A DNA stretch of 7,041 nucleotides, from IMG/VR virus record IMGVR_UViG_2778261502_000011. One strand, 5' to 3'. A program made the translations under genes and the position numbers. Below are positions 1 to 7,041 of the stretch, in pieces. The notes under the pieces were generated by a model. The model worked only from the letters and a program-made list of their open reading frames with translations. It had not been told where the DNA came from and did no database searches. The stretch's first letter is position 1. Each line of letters begins with the position of its first letter. Source of the stretch: a virus (lineage: Duplodnaviria > Heunggongvirae > Uroviricota > Caudoviricetes).

Positions 1-981
1 TTATAACGTCACTCCGCCTTTTAGTGGATTCAGAGCGACGGCATTTTGCAGATAGTCAGGCGCAAGGTGCGCATAGGCCATCGTCTGCTGAATGCTCGCA
101 TGTCCCAGAATCTGTTGCAGTGCGATTATATTGCCCCCATTCATCATGAAATGGCTTGCGAATGTATGCCGCAGGATGTGGGTTGCCTGATTGGGTGGTA
201 TATCAGGTTTCACTCTGCGTAAAATCCCGCAAAATTTCTCATAATCAACTTTGAATAATTTGGCGCTGGCCTCCTCTTTAACTTTTTTCTCCAGTTCCTC
301 AGAAATCGGCACGGTTCGCTTTTTACCGTTTTTGGTTTTCAGGAAGGTAACCCTGCAATTTGTAATCTGTGCTGGTTTTAGCGTGGCAACTTCCGTCCAT
401 CTTCCTCCAGTGCTCAGACATAAAAGCGCGACAAGTAAGTCATCACCAGCCAAAACATTTAACAGTTTTTCGATTTCTGCTTTTTCCAGGAACGTCATTT
501 CAGGGTTGGCCTCCGCCAGTGGCGGCAGTCCGTGAATTGGGTGTTGCCCGGAAAATTCATCCAATTGAATTAATTTTGTGAACATGCCGGATAATCGGTA
601 CATGTCACGGTTTATCGTTGCGGCACTGATACCATCACGTAGTCGCATGGAACGATAATCCATCAAAGCCCTTTTGCTCATCCTGCTCACTGGTATATCA
701 CCTATGCCGCTGATGGTTTTGAGTAGATGATTAAACTCTTTTGTTCCATGCTCGTGGTTTTGCCCGTGATATTTCCACCAGATGTCCAGCAACTCACTCA
801 AAGTCCGGCGGTCTGCTCGCTGGCCTCCCCATTCTTTCTGACTGGCATTGGCGATTGTGTATCGCTCAAATGCTAGTGCTTCAGCTTTTCTTTCGAATTT
901 CCTGCGGATGCGTTTTCCGTCGCGACCGCGAGGTCTAATGTCCACTTCATAGCGACCATCATCGAGCTTCTTAATTGCCAT
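1..981 (-). CDS. int: Tyrosine recombinase, P2-type phage integrase
   Basis: Minus-strand ORF with TAA stop at the reverse complement of 1-3. The ATG at the reverse complement of 979-981 is preceded by GGAGGG 7 nt upstream. The product starts MAIKKLDDGRYEVDIRP and carries the tyrosine-recombinase C-terminal signature (HILRHTFASH ... GH ... MAYAHL with the nucleophilic Tyr). An in-frame upstream ATG at 1011 (336 aa) has no Shine-Dalgarno sequence and is the less likely start. Confidence 0.93.
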   Translation of the reverse strand: MAIKKLDDGRYEVDIRPRGRDGKRIRRKFERKAEALAFERYTIANASQKEWGGQRADRRTLSELLDIWWKYHGQNHEHGTKEFNHLLKTISGIGDIPVSRMSKRALMDYRSMRLRDGISAATINRDMYRLSGMFTKLIQLDEFSGQHPIHGLPPLAEANPEMTFLEKAEIEKLLNVLAGDDLLVALLCLSTGGRWTEVATLKPAQITNCRVTFLKTKNGKKRTVPISEELEKKVKEEASAKLFKVDYEKFCGILRRVKPDIPPNQATHILRHTFASHFMMNGGNIIALQQILGHASIQQTMAYAHLAPDYLQNAVALNPLKGGVTL

Positions 982-1050
982 AAGAAAGCCCTCCGGCGCT
1001 GTATTCACCATCTTGGTAGCAAATGGTGAAAATGTAATCTTTATATAGAG

Positions 1051-1344
1051 TTAGCCAATCCTTTTCGCGGAGTGGTTGGACTCTGTTGACTCTGGCCCAA
1101 TGTGCGCGAGAGCCGGTGCGATTTGTCCTGCGTCCGGCGCGGTTTTATCTGTCATAAGCCATAGAGCATATTTTTGGAATGTGGGATGCATAGTGATTTT
1201 TAGCAAAGCTGTGCCACCGGGTTCAAAGTTTCCTCCTTCATATTTTTTAAGTGTGCTTAGCGGTAACTCTATGATTTCACAGAATTTTGATTGGCTTAGC
1301 CCTTCAGCCTCACGCAAGGCCTTAATCTTTTCGCTTAATTTCAT
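1051..1344 (-). CDS. C: P2 C-type immunity repressor (small HTH DNA-binding protein)
   Basis: 97-aa minus-strand ORF directly upstream of int and co-oriented with it. It faces the early operon across a short intergenic switch region. The protein (MKLSEKIKALREAEGLSQSKFCEIIELPLSTLKKYEGG ... GQIAPALAHIG) resembles the P2 C repressor as recalled, including the GQIAPALAH segment. Confidence 0.8.
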   Translation of the reverse strand: MKLSEKIKALREAEGLSQSKFCEIIELPLSTLKKYEGGNFEPGGTALLKITMHPTFQKYALWLMTDKTAPDAGQIAPALAHIGPESTESNHSAKRIG

Positions 1345-1403
1345 TTGACATGGTGCCTATATAGGGACTAAATTCCCTCAAAACTGGAACCTATATAGGT
1401 TCC
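1345..1403. promoter_or_regulatory. Putative lysis/lysogeny switch: early promoter with two palindromic operator-like repeats
   Basis: Plus strand shows a perfect -35 TTGACA at 1345-1350 and a candidate -10 TAAATT at 1369-1374 (18-nt spacer). The 10-bp palindrome CCTATATAGG occurs twice, at 1356-1365 and 1390-1399, flanking the candidate -10. The second copy sits inside a perfect 18-bp palindrome GGAACCTATATAGGTTCC (1386-1403). The leftward promoter for C/int was not pinned down. Confidence 0.45.
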
Positions 1404-1480
1404 ATTGATTTGAGAATAAACCAGCGTCTAAACGGTTTTGAGTGGTTTAGAAAGGGCTGGATCCTATGAGGGTACCATAT

Positions 1481-1753
1481 ATGGACGCTGAAAATTATGT
1501 GATTCAGTATCCGCTTGATGCGGTTCATGTGGATAAATTTGCTGATTTATTAGGGAAGCCAAAGACAGCCGTCAGTGAAATGGTGAAGGCAAATAAATTA
1601 CCAATTATTGAATTGCGTGATCCTTGCAAACCGAAGGCTCGTGCCGGTGAAAAATGGGTTTTCATTCCTGAGTTTAATCGCGCTGTACGTGAGGCGTTTT
1701 ATAACCGACCGGTTGAACAGCGTGATGCATGGCTTTTGTGGATGGGGTTGTGA
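1481..1753 (+). CDS. cox: Cox-like excisionase / switch regulator
   Basis: First plus-strand gene opposite C. The ATG at 1481 has GAGGG 7 nt upstream and gives a 90-aa product (P2 Cox is about 91 aa). The ORF extends to an upstream ATG at 1466 with a weaker Shine-Dalgarno. The C-terminus (RDAWLLWMGL) resembles the P2 Cox C-terminus as recalled. Confidence 0.78.
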   Translation: MDAENYVIQYPLDAVHVDKFADLLGKPKTAVSEMVKANKLPIIELRDPCKPKARAGEKWVFIPEFNRAVREAFYNRPVEQRDAWLLWMGL

Positions 1754-1755
1754 TT

Positions 1756-1926
1756 ATGAATGAGCCGCGTTGTATTGCTCAGTTATTGCGTAACGAAAGC
1801 CCCAGGGCGATTGACTTTACCATCACCCACGGGAAGGGTCGCAAGGGAATCATTATCCGCACCAAAAAACAGAGTCCGTTAAAAAAGGCTCTGACCTTTC
1901 TGAAAAGCCGGAGGGTCTGGAAATGA
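1756..1926 (+). CDS. Hypothetical small early protein (position of P2 orf78)
   Basis: ORF in the early operon; the six-frame ORF starts at 1729 but the ATG at 1756 follows the cox stop. Its stop TGA at 1924-1926 overlaps the ATG of the next gene (ATGA), indicating translational coupling. No motif recognised. Confidence 0.5.
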   Translation: MNEPRCIAQLLRNESPRAIDFTITHGKGRKGIIIRTKKQSPLKKALTFLKSRRVWK

Positions 1927-2423
1927 CAGTGATGACGCTCAATCTCGTCGAAAAACAGCCAGCAGCTATGCGCCGGATAATTGGTAAGCATCTTGCCGTT
2001 CCTCGCTGGCAGGATACATGTGATTATTATAATCAGATGATGGAGCGCGAACGGCTAACGGTTTGCTTTCATGCGCAGTTAAAACAGCGTCACGCAACGA
2101 TGCGTTTTGAAGAAATGAACGACGTCGAACGTGAACGGCTGGTTTGTGCAATTGATGAATTGCGTGGGGCATTCTCAAAACGCCGTCAGGTTGGCGCAAG
2201 TGAGTATGCATATATTAGTTTTTTAACAGTCAGTCAGCGTCGTACTTTATTTATGCATGCCGGATTGACTGAAAAAGAATTCAATCAGCCATACTGGCGA
2301 ATTAATGAAGAGTCATGTTACTGGCGTGATGCTTTATTCCGTGCATTACGTGAACTATTCAGTTTGTTTGAGTATGCACCGACAATTCTGACGTCGGTAA
2401 AACCAGAGCAATATCTGCATTAA
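1923..2423 (+). CDS. B: P2 gene B-like replication protein
   Basis: 166-aa ORF, the size I recall for P2 gpB, at the expected position after cox. GGAGGG lies about 11 nt upstream of the ATG at 1923. Confidence 0.7.
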   Translation: MTVMTLNLVEKQPAAMRRIIGKHLAVPRWQDTCDYYNQMMERERLTVCFHAQLKQRHATMRFEEMNDVERERLVCAIDELRGAFSKRRQVGASEYAYISFLTVSQRRTLFMHAGLTEKEFNQPYWRINEESCYWRDALFRALRELFSLFEYAPTILTSVKPEQYLH

Positions 2424-2486
2424 GTAATTAACCAGAGTTTTTAACGCACTTAATCGTGCGGGGCTTCTTTTTGCCTGGAGAAAGTC

Positions 2487-2711
2487 ATGCATACAGTTTC
2501 TGAAAATCAGTGCGGTAAATACGCATTACTGCTGCAACAGGCCAGAACCGAAGCACAGGCTGATGCTGCGACGCGCTTTTCTTCTCATCTTGACGCCATG
2601 ATTCGCCATATCACAAAGGCGGAGTTATCCCGCGTGGAGATAGTCGAGCTGCTCAGTCAGGAGTCGGAAAAATTTCACAATATCGGATTGTCTCGCGGGG
2701 AGGTGCTTTGA
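2487..2711 (+). CDS. Hypothetical small protein (P2 orf80 position)
   Basis: 74-aa ORF; ATG at 2487 preceded by GGAGAAA. Its stop TGA at 2709-2711 overlaps the next start. Confidence 0.6.
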
Positions 2712-3013
2712 TGTCCTGTTCTCATTCAGTTGTATTACTGAATAACGCCTTAAAAATCGCCGTTATGAAAAATGGCGATTTGTCTCTTATTCAACTTTGT
2801 CTTGATAAAGAAAAACGCGACATAACTGAATCTGTTATCGCGATTTATCAGAATGAATTAAACCTCCTGTCTGATGTGGTCAATTTACTTGTTAAACGCG
2901 CTGTATTTCACAAGCAAATCTCCTCCGTGGATGAACTGACGAAATTAACGACAGAAATCGCCAGCTATTGCGCTGATGAATTTAAGAAGCTGAACGACAA
3001 AAGGAGCTGGTAA
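2711..3013 (+). CDS. Hypothetical small protein (P2 orf81 position)
   Basis: ATG at 2711 with GGGGAGG about 8 nt upstream (the six-frame track starts at an in-frame TTG at 2708). Its stop TAA at 3011-3013 overlaps the next ATG (TAATG). Confidence 0.6.
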   Translation: MSCSHSVVLLNNALKIAVMKNGDLSLIQLCLDKEKRDITESVIAIYQNELNLLSDVVNLLVKRAVFHKQISSVDELTKLTTEIASYCADEFKKLNDKRSW

Positions 3014-3237
3014 TGCCGGACAACGTAGATTTTATTCAGGAACAACAGGCTGAATTACTGGAGCGCCAGATTAACGCGGCAAGGGTAAAACATTGCGGTG
3101 TTTCTGCGCTGGTTTGCGAAGAGTGTGACGCGCCAATACCTGCTGCCCGTCGTGCGGCTTATCCGTCAGCCACGCGTTGTGTTTCCTGTCAGTCAGTCTT
3201 TGAAGCAAAAAACAAACATTACCGGAGAATGGCATGA
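3013..3237 (+). CDS. TraR/DksA-family C4 zinc-finger protein (P2 orf82-like)
   Basis: 74-aa ORF with AAGGAG 7 nt upstream. It contains CEEC-(17 aa)-CVSC, the CxxC-x17-CxxC spacing typical of DksA/TraR zinc fingers. Confidence 0.75.
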   Translation: MPDNVDFIQEQQAELLERQINAARVKHCGVSALVCEECDAPIPAARRAAYPSATRCVSCQSVFEAKNKHYRRMA

Positions 3238-3509
3238 GTATTCGTATCGAAATTGGCGAACGTTATGTCGTTACCAGTGACAGCTTTCAGTTTATTCTCC
3301 ACGAGAAAAAGAGAGCGGAAAGCGGTAAAAACGCCGGTCAGGAATGGCTGGCGGTGGTTGGTTATTACCCGAAATTAAGCCAGCTCGTTTCCGGCCTGAT
3401 GCATCACGATATTCTGACCGGAAGCGCAAAGTCTTTTGCTGATTTAAACGCGCAGGTTGAGCAACTCAGCAAGCGTTGTTCAGAGGCTTTTGGCTCATAT
3501 GGCCGTTAA
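3234..3509 (+). CDS. Hypothetical small protein (P2 orf83 position)
   Basis: 91-aa ORF; ATG at 3234 overlaps the preceding stop, with GGAGAA upstream. It overlaps the start of the gene A remnant by 11 nt. Confidence 0.6.
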   Translation: MSIRIEIGERYVVTSDSFQFILHEKKRAESGKNAGQEWLAVVGYYPKLSQLVSGLMHHDILTGSAKSFADLNAQVEQLSKRCSEAFGSYGR

Positions 3510-3787
3510 AGCCTCCGGGCGTTTTGTCCCTCCGTCAGCATTTGCCGCAGGCACCGGTAAGGCGTTTACCGGTGCTTATGCATGGAACGCGCCACGCGAG
3601 GCTGTCGGGCGCGAAAGACCCCTTACACGTGACGAGATGCGTCAGGTGCAAGGTGTTTTATCCACGATTAACCGCCTGCCTTACTTTTTGCGCTCGCTGT
3701 TTACTTCACGCTATGACTACATCCGGCGCAATAAAAGCCCGGTATCCGGTTGCTGATGAGTGGTCGGTTTTTTCAATTAAACAATAA
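3499..3787 (+). pseudogene. A: Remnant of replication initiator gene A: N-terminal ~85 codons fused out of frame to the last ~12 codons
   Basis: From the ATG at 3499 the product reads MAVKASGRFVPPSAFAAGTGK...YDYIRRNKSPV, matching my recollection of the P2 gpA N-terminus, and stops at 3754-3756 after 85 codons. In the +2 frame the next codons read YPVADEW...* (stop at 3785-3787), resembling the gpA C-terminus. The junction lies at the short direct repeat CCGGT / CCGGT (3740-3744 and 3746-3750). A roughly 760-aa protein has been reduced to under 100 aa. Confidence 0.7.
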
Positions 3788-3839
3788 TGGCTACTGCCGC
3801 AGCGTTGTGGGAATGCTATAGTGTTTGTAGAATTATCCC

Positions 3840-3870
3840 ATGAAAAACAACTAATTAATCTGTTTTTCAT
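3840..3870. repeat. Perfect 10-bp inverted repeat (ATGAAAAACA / TGTTTTTCAT) with 11-bp spacer
   Basis: Read directly: ATGAAAAACA at 3840-3849 and its reverse complement TGTTTTTCAT at 3861-3870, in the AT-rich intergenic region between the A remnant and the methyltransferase. A T-run follows at about 3883-3889. It could be a protein-binding site or a weak terminator or hairpin; function is unknown. Confidence 0.5.
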
Positions 3871-3934
3871 ATTGAACTAATTTTTTATGGCCACAGTTGT
3901 TAAAAAGTGAGAACATAATCTTGTTCAAAACCTG

Positions 3935-3988
3935 CTTCTATATACGGAGGCTTTCGCTATAATACGCGGTCGGTTTTAGGAGGGGATA
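3935..3988 (+). promoter_or_regulatory. Putative promoter and RBS of the methyltransferase gene
   Basis: Consensus -10 TATAAT at 3958-3963 with only a weak -35 (CTTCTA at 3935-3940, 17-nt spacer). Shine-Dalgarno AGGAGG at 3978-3983 lies 5 nt before the ATG at 3989. Confidence 0.45.
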
Positions 3989-4933
3989 ATGCCAACAGTA
4001 GTTTCACTTTTTTCTGGATGCGGTGGTTCCGATGCGGGGGTTCTGAGAGCTGGCTTTGATGTGCTTATGGCCAACGATATCTTGCCGTATGCGCGCGATG
4101 TTTATATTGCCAATCATCCAGAAACTGATTACATTTTAGGCAATATTGCTGATGTAACTACTTTTCCTAAATCTGATTTGCTAGTAGGTTGTTATCCATG
4201 TCAGGGATTCAGCCAGGGTGGTGCGCGTAAGGCCGATCGAAAAATTAATACTCTTTATTTAGAGTTTGCTAGAGCTTTAAACAATATAAAGCCTAAAGCT
4301 TTTATAGTAGAAAACGTGTCTGGTATGGTTAGAAAAAACTTCGAGCATTTGTTATCTGACCAGATCAGGGTTTTTACTGAAGCAGGTTATGCTGTTTCAG
4401 CAAAAGTTTTGAATGCGGCTGAATATGGAGTAGCGCAGGAAAGAAAAAGAATATTTATCGTAGGAATCCGTAATGATTTCAAAGTTAAGTACGAGTTCCC
4501 TCAGCCAACTCATGGGCCGGCGACTGGCGTCAACTATGTTACTATTAAAGATGCTATAGGGCATTTACCTGAATGGCCAGAAGGTGAATTTTATGATATG
4601 GGGTTCCATTGGTATTATATGTCTCGCAATCGTCGCCAAGATTGGGATCAAATTTCAAAGACAATAGTTGCTAATGCAAGGCATATGCCGTTGCATCCTA
4701 TCAGTCCTTCGATGGAGAAAGTAAGAACTGATGAATGGAGGTTTGTTGAGGATCGGAGAGCTCGCAGATTCAGTTTTCGAGAGGCAGCACTATTACAAGG
4801 GTTTGAGGATCTAGTGTTTCCCGAAACAAATGCTGCAAGTCTTGGCATGAAATACACGGTGGTTGGTAATGCAGTGCCTCCGCCGCTTTTTGAAGCTGTA
4901 ACGAAGGCATTGCCAATAGAATTATGGGATTGA
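3989..4933 (+). CDS. DNA (cytosine-5)-methyltransferase
   Basis: 314-aa ORF with a strong RBS. It carries the canonical C5-MTase motifs in the correct order: FSGCGG (motif I, AdoMet binding), PCQGFS (motif IV, catalytic Cys), ENV (motif VI), QERKR (motif VIII) and GNAV (motif X), with a short variable region between VIII and IX for target recognition. Confidence 0.92.
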   Translation: MPTVVSLFSGCGGSDAGVLRAGFDVLMANDILPYARDVYIANHPETDYILGNIADVTTFPKSDLLVGCYPCQGFSQGGARKADRKINTLYLEFARALNNIKPKAFIVENVSGMVRKNFEHLLSDQIRVFTEAGYAVSAKVLNAAEYGVAQERKRIFIVGIRNDFKVKYEFPQPTHGPATGVNYVTIKDAIGHLPEWPEGEFYDMGFHWYYMSRNRRQDWDQISKTIVANARHMPLHPISPSMEKVRTDEWRFVEDRRARRFSFREAALLQGFEDLVFPETNAASLGMKYTVVGNAVPPPLFEAVTKALPIELWD

Positions 4934-4940
4934 TAATCTA

Positions 4941-5930
4941 TTAAGGCTCTGGATTTAATGTATAAAGTTCTTCTTCAAATTCGCGAAACCAATCAGAGGT
5001 AGTTATCGCTTCCCATTGGTTTGCCTTATCAAGTAGATATATGATCCTCAACCTATCTAATAATAATACACCAGCGGTTGCATGTGTGCTTACCCATTCG
5101 CCATTTGCTTCCCGATAGAAAACAGGCGTGAACATTGTTGATGGATGCTGGAAAGCAATTTGGAAATAGGTGGTCAGTTTTAACACGTTAGCCTCTAATG
5201 TTTTGCTTGGCCACCCTGTTTCTTGTGCACCACATTGACCAAGAATTCCATAGTTGCTAGTTTGACCATCAGGAAATTCCACTGTAGCAATTAGGTCAAA
5301 CCCAGCATCACCAGATGTGGGAGCTTTATTTATTTCCCTTGTGTTTAAACTACAAACTCCAAGATCTTTTCCTAAAATTTGTAGAGCATTCCGAAGATTC
5401 GTTCCATAATATTTTTGCCTATCATCGGAGTTAGCATCAAAAATTCTTACGGTGCCATGTGCAGGTAAGAGAGAAATCATTGCAACTTTACATACTCTGG
5501 CAAAGCTCTTTGCCCAACGTTGTGCTGCTCCTCTAATCGACTTAAAGGATCTAAGTCTAGAGCAGCAAAGGAGAAAAACATATATTCTTTGTTGTTGGTT
5601 TAGATTTTCTTTAATAATTATCTCATCACCTGAAATTATAAATGGATATATCTTTCCAAGAGCGCTTTCTCTATATTCGAGTTGTGTCCAAACATCTTCT
5701 AGTTGCTCTTCAAAACGATCATTTCTCTCTGCGTCTCCATCAATTTCTTCTTCAAAATTACATTCTTCATCAATTTCTTCAACACTTGTCATGCCGAATT
5801 TTCTTACTGAATCTAAATCATTTTTATGCAGAGAGTTACGTCCGGTATAATTAATCACCGTGAGTAACTCGGCTAAATCTGCAAACAAATGGGGAGAGTT
5901 GGGATGCATAACTCCTACTTCAAAAGTCAT
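4941..5930 (-). CDS. Uncharacterised protein, downstream partner of the ParB-family gene (function unknown)
   Basis: Long minus-strand ORF (track: 4941..5936, 331 aa) with three consecutive in-frame starts (GTG 5936, ATG 5933, ATG 5930). The ATG at 5930 has GAGGT about 4 nt upstream. The start overlaps the stop of the upstream gene (5920-5922), so the two are translationally coupled. The protein has an acidic segment (EEIDEECNFEEEIDGDAERNDRFEEQLED). I find no Walker A motif and no catalytic motif I can name. Confidence 0.75.
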   Translation of the reverse strand: MTFEVGVMHPNSPHLFADLAELLTVINYTGRNSLHKNDLDSVRKFGMTSVEEIDEECNFEEEIDGDAERNDRFEEQLEDVWTQLEYRESALGKIYPFIISGDEIIIKENLNQQQRIYVFLLCCSRLRSFKSIRGAAQRWAKSFARVCKVAMISLLPAHGTVRIFDANSDDRQKYYGTNLRNALQILGKDLGVCSLNTREINKAPTSGDAGFDLIATVEFPDGQTSNYGILGQCGAQETGWPSKTLEANVLKLTTYFQIAFQHPSTMFTPVFYREANGEWVSTHATAGVLLLDRLRIIYLLDKANQWEAITTSDWFREFEEELYTLNPEP

Positions 5931-7041
5931 CATCACCTCTGCTATTTTTCTCTGCTATTTCAGAACCTATAAGCTTAATATGTTTATTGATTCTTCGTGC
6001 TACTTCATGAGCCTGTCTATCATACTCTACTGTGGCAACCATGCCTGCTGCATCTATCAAAGCCGCTTCAACTTGATAAAGTAACTGGAGAAAGTCCTTA
6101 GTAATATCAGATGTCAATTGGTAGGCCACTGCGAGTGGAGCCCCCATTCGGAATTGCTCCAATGCCTTAGGGCTACTGACAACAGCAGCTAATTCTCTTA
6201 AATTACGTGACTCTCCAACACGAGTTTTTTTATCCTCACCTTTTTTATATAACCACTCAGTTAGCTCTTTTATTTCTTTGTTCTTTAAGCTATTAGAGTT
6301 GATAATAGGATGACTTGGTATTGTGTCTCCATCGTCTTCGATTGAAACTCCGACAAATTGGCCTAACCGCTCATCAGCAAGTGCTGTTGATAATACTGAA
6401 AATTTAATCGTTTCTTCATCTAGTTTTTCAATACCATAAAAATCATTTTCTTTAATGATTTCATACACCGCTAAAGCGTCTAGGTTACGCTTGATATGAT
6501 CCCTACGACTGCCAATAGCTCTGGCAACCTCATAGTAGCGTAGCATCGGATCCTGATTTGCATTGGTATAATCAAAAAGCTGTTTAATATATCGAGCTTT
6601 TGATAAGGGCTCCCATTGTTTGACACCAGTAATATGTCTGAAACCAAGATACGGAAGAATCTCTTCTCTTGTTTGGCGCTCAATGACAGGAACACGATCG
6701 ACTGTATGTTTTGCATTTGATGCAATTTCTCGTAGTCGAGCACTTGGATTTTCACATAGTGTCGGATCGCGTAATAATTTAACTGCGGATAGGCGACGGT
6801 TTCCTTCAACTACAATGTACTTCCCCGGCGCGACACTGTCAGGAATGACAATCAATGGTTCTCCAGGGAAAAAACCATTTTCCGCAATAGCACTCATTAG
6901 ATCTTCGATAGATGTTGAGGTTGCTATGTAGTTAATCATTCCCAATTGGTCACGAGACACGCCTTCAGGAAGTCTTGGGTTTTCTGTGTCAAGTTCCAAA
7001 TCATCTAGCGGAACATAAAGTATTTCTGAATCAGCAATCAT
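5920..7041 (-). CDS. ParB/Spo0J-family protein (ParB N-terminal domain plus HTH) with an uncharacterised C-terminal extension of about 180 aa
   Basis: 373-aa minus-strand ORF whose ATG is the reverse complement of 7039-7041, at the window edge. The N-terminal ~90 residues fit the ParB N-terminal domain pattern: ENPR (res 20-23), SIEDLMSAIAENGFFPGEPLIVIP (box I-like) and YIVVEGNRRLSAVKLL (GxRR arginine patch, nt 6784-6807). A box III-like VIERQTREEIL and an HTH-like YYEVARAIGSRRDHIKRNLDAL (res ~168-192) follow, resembling the Spo0J recognition helix region. No HNH or other nuclease motif was recognised in the C-terminal part. Confidence 0.8.
   Translation of the reverse strand: MIADSEILYVPLDDLELDTENPRLPEGVSRDQLGMINYIATSTSIEDLMSAIAENGFFPGEPLIVIPDSVAPGKYIVVEGNRRLSAVKLLRDPTLCENPSARLREIASNAKHTVDRVPVIERQTREEILPYLGFRHITGVKQWEPLSKARYIKQLFDYTNANQDPMLRYYEVARAIGSRRDHIKRNLDALAVYEIIKENDFYGIEKLDEETIKFSVLSTALADERLGQFVGVSIEDDGDTIPSHPIINSNSLKNKEIKELTEWLYKKGEDKKTRVGESRNLRELAAVVSSPKALEQFRMGAPLAVAYQLTSDITKDFLQLLYQVEAALIDAAGMVATVEYDRQAHEVARRINKHIKLIGSEIAEKNSRGDDDF

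Follow-up and report, generated by a model that had tools for sequence, protein, structure and literature searches.

The DNA considered here is a 7,041-nucleotide stretch of a virus of the class Caudoviricetes (IMG/VR record IMGVR_UViG_2778261502_000011), which we call the window, and the gene under study occupies positions 4941 to 5930 of its minus strand. We refer to its 329-amino-acid (aa) product as X329 and count residues from the ATG at 5930. From profile searches, structure modelling and a comparison of related loci, we consider it probable that X329 acts as the effector nuclease in an anti-phage module of three genes that resembles a restriction-modification system and sits in a hotspot of P2-type prophages, where X329 stands beside a translationally coupled ParB/KorB-like partner and a convergent C5 cytosine DNA methyltransferase. 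The features that carry this reading are the following, with protein-coding spans given as coding sequences (CDS) and PGAP standing for the Prokaryotic Genome Annotation Pipeline:

4941..5930, minus strand: X329 CDS, 329 aa, from ATG 5930-5928 to stop TAA 4943-4941 (PGAP WP_089520486.1 has identical coordinates, 990 nt)
5601..5930, minus strand: X329 aa 1-110, acidic N-terminal helical module with family-invariant D18, E21 and R87
5031..5453, minus strand: X329 aa ~160-300, predicted PD-(D/E)xK (Mrr/MspJI-like) restriction-endonuclease core
5307-5309, 5295-5297, 5268-5270 and 5235-5237, minus strand: codons of the proposed active-site residues D208, D212, D221 and Q232
5229-5231, 5202-5204 and 5193-5195, minus strand: further proposed codons, G234 (canonical Lys position), K243 and E246
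5920..5939, minus strand: translational-coupling junction, with a Shine-Dalgarno-like GAGG (5939-5936), the X329 ATG (5930-5928) and the stop TGA of the ParB-like gene (5922-5920)
5920..7041, minus strand: ParB/KorB-like partner CDS, 373 aa, whose start codon is the final codon of the window
3989..4933, plus strand: C5 cytosine DNA methyltransferase CDS, 314 aa, convergent with X329 (Pfam DNA_methylase, PF00145, 5e-65; TIGR00675)
4934..4940, no strand: 7-bp spacer between the convergent stops of the methylase and X329

Fold, putative active site and limits of X329

With X329 alone, nothing significant was found in NCBIfam, PADLOC or the PDB by single-sequence search, Pfam gave only a sub-threshold match to W_rich_C, and PHROGs assigns the protein to phrog_3984, a family of unknown function; a profile of 30 close homologues returned only coiled-coil noise from the PDB. 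A match in the PDB surfaced only with a profile of 149 family members, aligned at a mean column identity of 23%, which hits a single solved protein family, the catalytic core of MspJI (4f0p, E 0.01). The profile alignment pairs the family stretch sGDgGlD...vvfGQC with MspJI SGDGGVD334...VVLGQ355AK357 and places D212 and Q232 of X329 on D334 and Q355, with the same spacing of about 20 residues; we take these two MspJI residues to be part of its D...QxK catalytic motif. An AlphaFold model of X329 computed on the family alignment (predicted local distance difference test, pLDDT, 96.7; predicted template-modelling score, pTM, 0.94) gave MspJI as its best PDB match in Foldseek (E 8e-3, probability 0.99), that is, a nuclease fold, followed by NgoMIV, Bse634I, FokI and AspBHI. 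When all 149 members were scanned one by one, individual sequences weakly matched Pfam Mrr_cat and Mrr_cat_2, and three weakly matched the PADLOC model mREase_II.

The modelled core has the alpha-beta-beta-beta-alpha-beta arrangement that characterises the PD-(D/E)xK superfamily, with D212 in the place of the catalytic Asp at the start of strand 2 and Q232 in that of the (D/E/Q) residue on strand 3. These signals are each modest, they are independent and they agree, and by profile and model the C-terminal half of X329 (aa ~160-300) is an Mrr/MspJI-type restriction-endonuclease fold. A first-pass annotation of this DNA, made from the sequence alone, had seen no recognisable domain and no clear PD-(D/E)xK motif. 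The former holds for standard libraries searched with X329 alone and fails for the family profile and the structure model, while the latter overlooked a divergent Mrr/MspJI-type motif, SGDxGxD212...GQ232-C-G, which is visible only by those two means.

Conservation within the family bears on whether this fold is catalytic. Across the 149 sequences, D18, E21, R87, Y117, F143, D212, Q232, W240, R293 and R295 are invariant and G207, D208, G210, D221, C233 and K243 nearly so, with D212 and Q232 kept in 149/149, D208 in 147/149 and K243 in 146/149. The position of the canonical Lys of the QxK motif is G234 in X329, and in the family it is occupied by Ala in 108, Gly in 25 and Lys in 5 of the 149 sequences (Ala or Gly in 133). 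The only three members that lack K243 (P0218, P0234 and P0239) all carry the canonical GQCKC with K234, an exclusivity with a Fisher p of 1.9e-5 that is not corrected for shared ancestry. Such a pattern is expected if one Lys is always required and has been relocated in most members, and the catalytic Lys has apparently moved from the QxK strand (G234) to K243 on the next helix in the majority of sequences. In the NgoMIV/Cfr10I group, too, catalytic residues are known to have shifted to an adjacent helix. Because of the Lys covariation and the invariance of D212 and Q232, the alignment argues for X329 being an active nuclease and not a dead DNA-binding fold. The cryptic nuclease effector that had been guessed at from gene position is accordingly a better-founded prediction, which draws on the MspJI profile match, the Foldseek match to MspJI, the Lys-relocation pattern and the defence context described below.

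X329 is a real gene under purifying selection, given 252 close and 1206 distant cluster homologues and a ratio of nonsynonymous to synonymous substitution (dN/dS) of 0.10 between two E. coli alleles. The close homologues, found by a word-indexed search, are all of about 330 aa, 50-60% identical and annotated as hypothetical, and they range from Enterobacteria to Methylococcales, Burkholderiales and Pseudomonas. An exhaustive profile search returned at least 1206 representatives of 50%-identity clusters at E <= 1e-3 and 203 at E <= 1e-30, nearly all of 310-350 aa. No homology to a housekeeping or phage structural protein was found, and in related loci the open reading frame (ORF) is intact and conserved, neither frameshifted nor absent.

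The longest form of this ORF (4941-5936, minus strand) begins at GTG 5936 and gives 331 aa, the length reported in the first-pass annotation together with the coordinates 4941-5930; the coordinates are right, and the length exceeds them by two codons. ATG 5930, which gives 329 aa, is the likely start, since it is the choice of PGAP, homologues begin M-x-F there and GAGG lies 5 nt upstream. The acidic segment previously noticed near the N-terminus is present, with a net charge of -14 over aa 45-95 and -17 over aa 1-110, and AlphaFold models it as confident helices, not disorder. A winged-helix-like module is modelled somewhere within the N-terminal half.

The ParB/KorB-like partner, the C5 methylase and their linkage

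We surveyed 64 non-identical loci from genomes, metagenomes, phages and contig look-ups, with 25-100% identity to X329; the metagenome scan used a 30-sequence alignment. In the window the ParB-like gene and X329 overlap by exactly 11 nt (5920-5930) and the GAGG at 5939-5936, 5 nt 5' of the ATG, lies inside the upstream gene, as the first-pass annotation had described. The overlap is 11 nt in 31 related loci, 14 nt in 14 and 8 nt in 4, with gaps of 16-22 nt in about 6, and coupling of the two genes is therefore conserved. All 56 loci with enough sequence to judge, across 25-100% identity, have a ParB-like gene immediately upstream in the same orientation, though only as a remnant in one of them, L063, and the overlap is mostly kept; this supports the co-expression and shared function that had been proposed from the window alone.

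The partner itself was assigned from its motifs and profiles. NPR (aa 21-23), EGNRR (aa 79-83) and RH..G...W (aa 135-143) are invariant across 43 orthologues, the protein matches NCBIfam TIGR00180 parB_part, and aa 9-192 match PADLOC PD-Lambda-5_A models (best E 1.6e-28; model positions ~7-196 of 440). The orthologue profile also matches ParB of H. pylori and C. crescentus, including a second stretch, aa 164-192, that falls on the ParB helix-turn-helix (HTH). Because of these invariant motifs and profile matches, the partner can be classed on its sequence as a ParB/KorB-type protein, with a ParB/Srx N-terminal domain containing a nucleotide pocket and an HTH. Its N-terminal domain resembles the ParB, KorB and PadC proteins that bind cytidine triphosphate (CTP), and also Spo0J, rather than a nuclease, and a Pfam scan found neither DUF262 nor DUF1524 in the partner or in X329. 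The dN/dS between two E. coli alleles is 0.04. In the structure of the ParB-like protein, predicted from database homologues, the C-terminal ~170 residues (aa ~200-373; 5923-6441, minus strand) form helices, modelled with confidence, for which the PDB offers no convincing structural match; this helical region, in which the partner departs from PD-lambda-5 protein A, is a candidate site for docking of the nuclease.

The methylase resembles M.HaeIII (1dct; site GGCC) over its full length, including the target-recognition region (E 2.8e-48), has a dN/dS of 0.05 between two E. coli alleles and is probably the self-marking component of the module; from the resemblance to M.HaeIII, a GGCC-related target site is weakly predicted. 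Its best PADLOC match is the Druantia type II methylase model DruM2 (1e-113). The spacer between its stop and that of X329 is only 7 bp and leaves no room for a terminator, therefore the two transcripts must run into each other. No terminator-like hairpin was found at 4934-4940, and a promoter and terminator scan of 3700-7041 performed at chance level. Comparably tight convergent spacing recurs in several distant loci (L002, L020, L037 and L046), pointing to antisense control or interference in transcription between the genes for modification and restriction.

The first-pass annotation had treated the locus as a pair, and the pairing of the ParB-like gene with X329 stands; the methylase was not considered there, yet it is linked in 48 of 54 evaluable loci, within the fetched flanks. 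It lies convergent downstream in 40, downstream on the same strand in 4 and upstream on the same strand in 4, and an association kept through such changes of gene order is a strong sign of functional linkage. A methyltransferase gene next to the predicted endonuclease gene, the arrangement of Type II systems, is seen in the window and in these 48 loci, with six lacking it. The triad persists at 25-33% identity, including the gp98-gp96-mth genes of phage Wphi and, at another position, a Pseudomonas P2-like phage, and it was also seen in E. coli phages vB_EcoM-12474II-V and Yersinia phage HQ103. In two distant metagenomic loci the C5 methylase stands beside a gene for Vsr, the very-short-patch repair endonuclease that is the usual companion of C5 methylases (L064 557-889; L065 467-883), and in the latter an HNH_2 protein is encoded between the two.

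The surroundings of pairs that lack a methylase vary. In L003 and L027 the pair is preceded by genes for a type I specificity subunit and an AAA_16 ATPase; in L008 a resolvase and IS605 OrfB follow; in L032 the pair comes after a transposase and the ParB-like gene is truncated; and in L011, L014 and L052 it sits between housekeeping genes. One further locus, L063 (4236-5001; P0200, 27% identity), has the nuclease-family gene alone, with a ParB-like remnant of about 38 aa upstream (4723-4836) and, nearby, a SwaI-like gene and an Eco57I-type restriction-modification gene. It may be a decaying copy inside a defence island.

As for the genomic setting, the window is 100% identical, save for one gap, to the left arm of a P2-like prophage next to cpxP in E. 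coli ATCC 8739 (NZ_CP043852.1). The gene order is integrase, C-type repressor, cox, early genes, TraR/DksA, the start of replication gene A, C5 methylase, X329 and ParB-like gene, with the portal gene just beyond the window. Between gene A and the portal gene, the three genes of the module fill a variable region that is described as an anti-phage hotspot (Vassallo et al. 2022; Rousset et al. 2022) and numbered P2 hotspot #1; in P2 itself it holds old and tin. No ATPase gene was found between gene A and the portal gene. The text of Rousset 2022 makes no mention of ParB or a methyltransferase, and we found no study of the ParB/X329/C5-methylase triad in the searchable literature, which does not prove that none exists.

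The region occurs in 48 of 5426 complete E. coli genomes (~1%). Gene A is full in all 48, where the match to the window always comes in two pieces spanning 5330 bp. Missing from the window are 1985 bp from the middle of gene A, spliced at 3742-3744 (compare L001 6046-8030), so that the first ~82 and last ~15 codons remain; this gap could reflect either a genuine deletion carried by another strain or editing of the window. Positions 1-3509 form an ordinary P2-type early region, with the following genes, named from the PGAP annotation of the matching record:

1-1011, minus strand: integrase
1051-1344, minus strand: HTH repressor
1466-1753 (PGAP start 1481): Cox-family protein
1923-2423: 166-aa hypothetical protein
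2487-2711: DUF2732
2708/2711-3013: DUF5405
3013-3237: TraR/DksA zinc-finger protein
3234-3509: second DUF5405

Proposed mechanism and competing explanations

In the module as we picture it, the M.HaeIII-like methylase would mark host and prophage DNA, and the ParB-like subunit would recognise DNA and act as a switch or clamp dependent on a nucleoside triphosphate (NTP), probably CTP, by means of its NPR/GNRR pocket and HTH. The ParB-like protein would recruit or license X329, perhaps through the acidic N-terminal winged-helix-like module, and X329 would cut unmethylated incoming DNA. An obligatory ParB-like partner with an intact nucleotide pocket suggests a nucleotide requirement, which would set the module outside classical Type IIP systems. 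A more specific version of this mechanism, which we offer tentatively and hold to be possible at best, is that the ParB/KorB-like protein and X329 represent a new nucleotide-switch restriction class, in which a CTP clamp would load at unmethylated sites, spread or slide, and deliver or license the Lys-relocated nuclease.

Several points weigh against a nuclease effector working in this way. The canonical Lys is missing in X329, and its substitution by K243 is deduced from covariation, not from coordinates. The N-terminal module is strongly acidic and so unlikely to bind DNA. Finally, six of the 54 evaluable loci carry the ParB/X329 pair, with intact active-site residues, and no C5 methylase within 5-6 kb, where a constitutive classical restriction enzyme would be expected to be lethal. 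These methylase-less pairs speak against constitutive activity of the nuclease, and they leave room for a model in which X329 is a sensor-triggered effector of the abortive-infection (Abi) kind, an alternative that we regard as rather unlikely overall. According to it, the ParB-like protein would restrain X329 and free or activate it on phage DNA or protein, leading to degradation without distinction of self from non-self, with the methylase separate or auxiliary. The existence of catalytically intact pairs without a nearby methylase agrees with such a model, as does the homology of the partner's ParB domain to PD-Lambda-5_A, in which that domain is fused to a HEPN-like effector; PD-lambda-5 has been described as a compacted restriction-modification and Abi system (Vassallo et al. 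2022), and ParB-superfamily domains are sensors in GmrSD, SspE and Menshen (PMC12065111). However, the methylase is retained in 48/54 loci, across three gene orders and at identities as low as 25%, as is usual for a self-marking partner that cannot be dispensed with; it has Vsr beside it in two loci, and the sequence holds no sign of an inhibitory interaction.

The missing canonical Lys lends itself to another explanation, namely that X329 is a catalytically dead restriction-endonuclease-like fold serving as a DNA-binding, specificity or scaffold subunit, and that the damage would come from a host factor or from the ParB-like protein, historically called a 'ParB-like nuclease'. The Ala or Gly found at this position in 133/149 sequences, the modest scores of the fold matches and the precedent of inactive DNA-binding domains of this kind in NsnA of Menshen (PMC12065111) would fit. 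Nevertheless, we judge it improbable, since D212 and Q232 never vary and D208, D221 and K243 hardly ever do at a mean column identity of only 23%, K243 and K234 exclude each other in the three informative sequences, and the partner's N-terminal domain keeps its nucleotide-binding motifs and resembles CTP-binding ParB, KorB and PadC, not a nuclease. Somewhat more improbable again is a modification-dependent enzyme (Type IV/IIM, MspJI-like or GmrSD-like) that would restrict modified phage DNA, the methylase being an independent prophage gene that serves, for example, to evade host restriction. The closest solved catalytic domains, those of MspJI and AspBHI, are both modification-dependent, three family members weakly match mREase_II, a few pairs lack a methylase, and a ParB-like NTPase with a nuclease is the layout of GmrS/GmrD and SspE (PMC12065111), but the partner is not a DUF262 protein and the C5 methylase linked in 48/54 loci would put 5-methylcytosine into the host's own DNA.

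A non-defence module for phage DNA handling, such as a partition, replication or packaging accessory built from ParB-like and nuclease-like folds, appears to us very improbable. Members of the ParB family classically serve in partition, and in some sources the partner goes under the name 'chromosome partitioning protein ParB', yet there is no ParA-type ATPase at the locus, and the P2 hotspot in which the module lies is variable and non-essential, its other occupants being old, tin and defence systems that have been validated. The pair is also found outside phages, beside type I restriction-modification genes, insertion sequence elements and housekeeping genes, and it travels with a DNA methylase and sometimes with Vsr. 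On gene content, ParABS partition was rejected as a classification, with no ParA present and methylases, not ParA, as the neighbours in related loci, and the restriction-modification-like module with X329 as its nuclease remains the reading that we prefer.

Comparison with known systems

The X329 family is large and present in P2-like phages, yet no model in Pfam, NCBIfam or PADLOC represents it and its members are annotated as 'hypothetical' everywhere, and current defence-system finders miss the ParB/X329/methylase module. With a fold assigned, what had been nameless cargo of a hotspot becomes a three-gene defence system open to testing, and ParB/KorB-type nucleotide switches would be linked to DNA restriction. 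If the ParB-like subunit is a CTP-gated clamp, a mechanism of chromosome segregation would extend to immunity, which would also explain PD-lambda-5, so far mechanistically unexplained. It would then be the first ParB CTPase clamp that acts in immunity rather than in chromosome segregation or transcriptional control, and one widespread in Proteobacteria and P2-like phages (Wphi, HQ103, vB_EcoM-12474, Pseudomonas D14A).

Enzymes of the MspJI/AspBHI/Mrr type are the closest to X329 by profile and Foldseek, with GDxGxD212 and GQ232 aligned to GDGGVD334 and GQ355. They differ in that the QxK Lys is mostly Gly or Ala in the X329 family and apparently replaced by K243, and no SRA-like domain for binding modified bases was found in X329, whose N-terminal half is acidic, helical and winged-helix-like. 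A classical MspJI-like Type IIM or Type IV enzyme was rejected for want of this domain and because X329 is not solitary, given its linked methylase in 48/54 loci. With NgoMIV, Cfr10I, Bse634I, SgrAI and AgeI there is only 7-11% identity and no sequence-level match. These enzymes take one catalytic residue from a neighbouring helix, which parallels the proposed move to K243, but in NgoMIV-type enzymes the relocated residue is acidic, not Lys, and they are homo-oligomers without an NTP-binding partner. A C5 methylase together with a nuclease and an NTPase is found in CglI and NgoAVII, which are NTP-dependent restriction systems of several subunits.

GmrS/GmrD, SspE and BrxU share with this module the control of a nuclease by a ParB-superfamily or NTPase subunit or domain, and the use of the ParB superfamily as a sensor in defence has been reviewed (PMC12065111). 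They rely on DUF262 (DGQQR) with a DUF1524 His-Me finger, whereas here a canonical ParB/KorB protein with an HTH is combined with a PD-(D/E)xK fold, not with HNH/DUF1524 or PLD; furthermore, they target modified DNA and have no cognate methylase of such a kind.

Among named systems the nearest is the experimentally validated PD-lambda-5 of E. coli ECOR7 (Vassallo et al. 2022), which is alike in being a prophage-borne combination of a ParB-like protein, an effector and a DNA methylase. It consists of two genes, in which protein A is ParB fused to a weak HEPN-like (DUF4145/RiboL-PSP) region at aa 388-498 and protein B is a Dam-like MethyltransfD12. The present locus has three genes, with a C5 enzyme convergent to a two-gene operon and a separate PD-(D/E)xK effector without a PADLOC match, and the C-terminal half of the partner does not align to PD-Lambda-5_A. 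Membership in PD-lambda-5 was rejected because effector type, methylase class and gene number all differ, leaving only the ParB domain and the concept in common.

A distant version of the triad is found in phage Wphi (NC_005056.1, L070 96-3266; phrog_14650), where gp98 lies upstream of gp96 and a cytosine methylase gene, mth, is convergent, again in the P2-type hotspot. Wphi gp96 shares 25% identity with X329 (E 6e-13) and retains every proposed catalytic residue; it belongs to a distant subfamily, is 369 aa long and is annotated only as gp96/orf96, with no functional study found in the searchable literature. Taken together, profiles and models point to a restriction-modification-like defence system that combines a nuclease family not described before with a partner of ParB/KorB type, its sole tie to PD-lambda-5 being the ParB domain.

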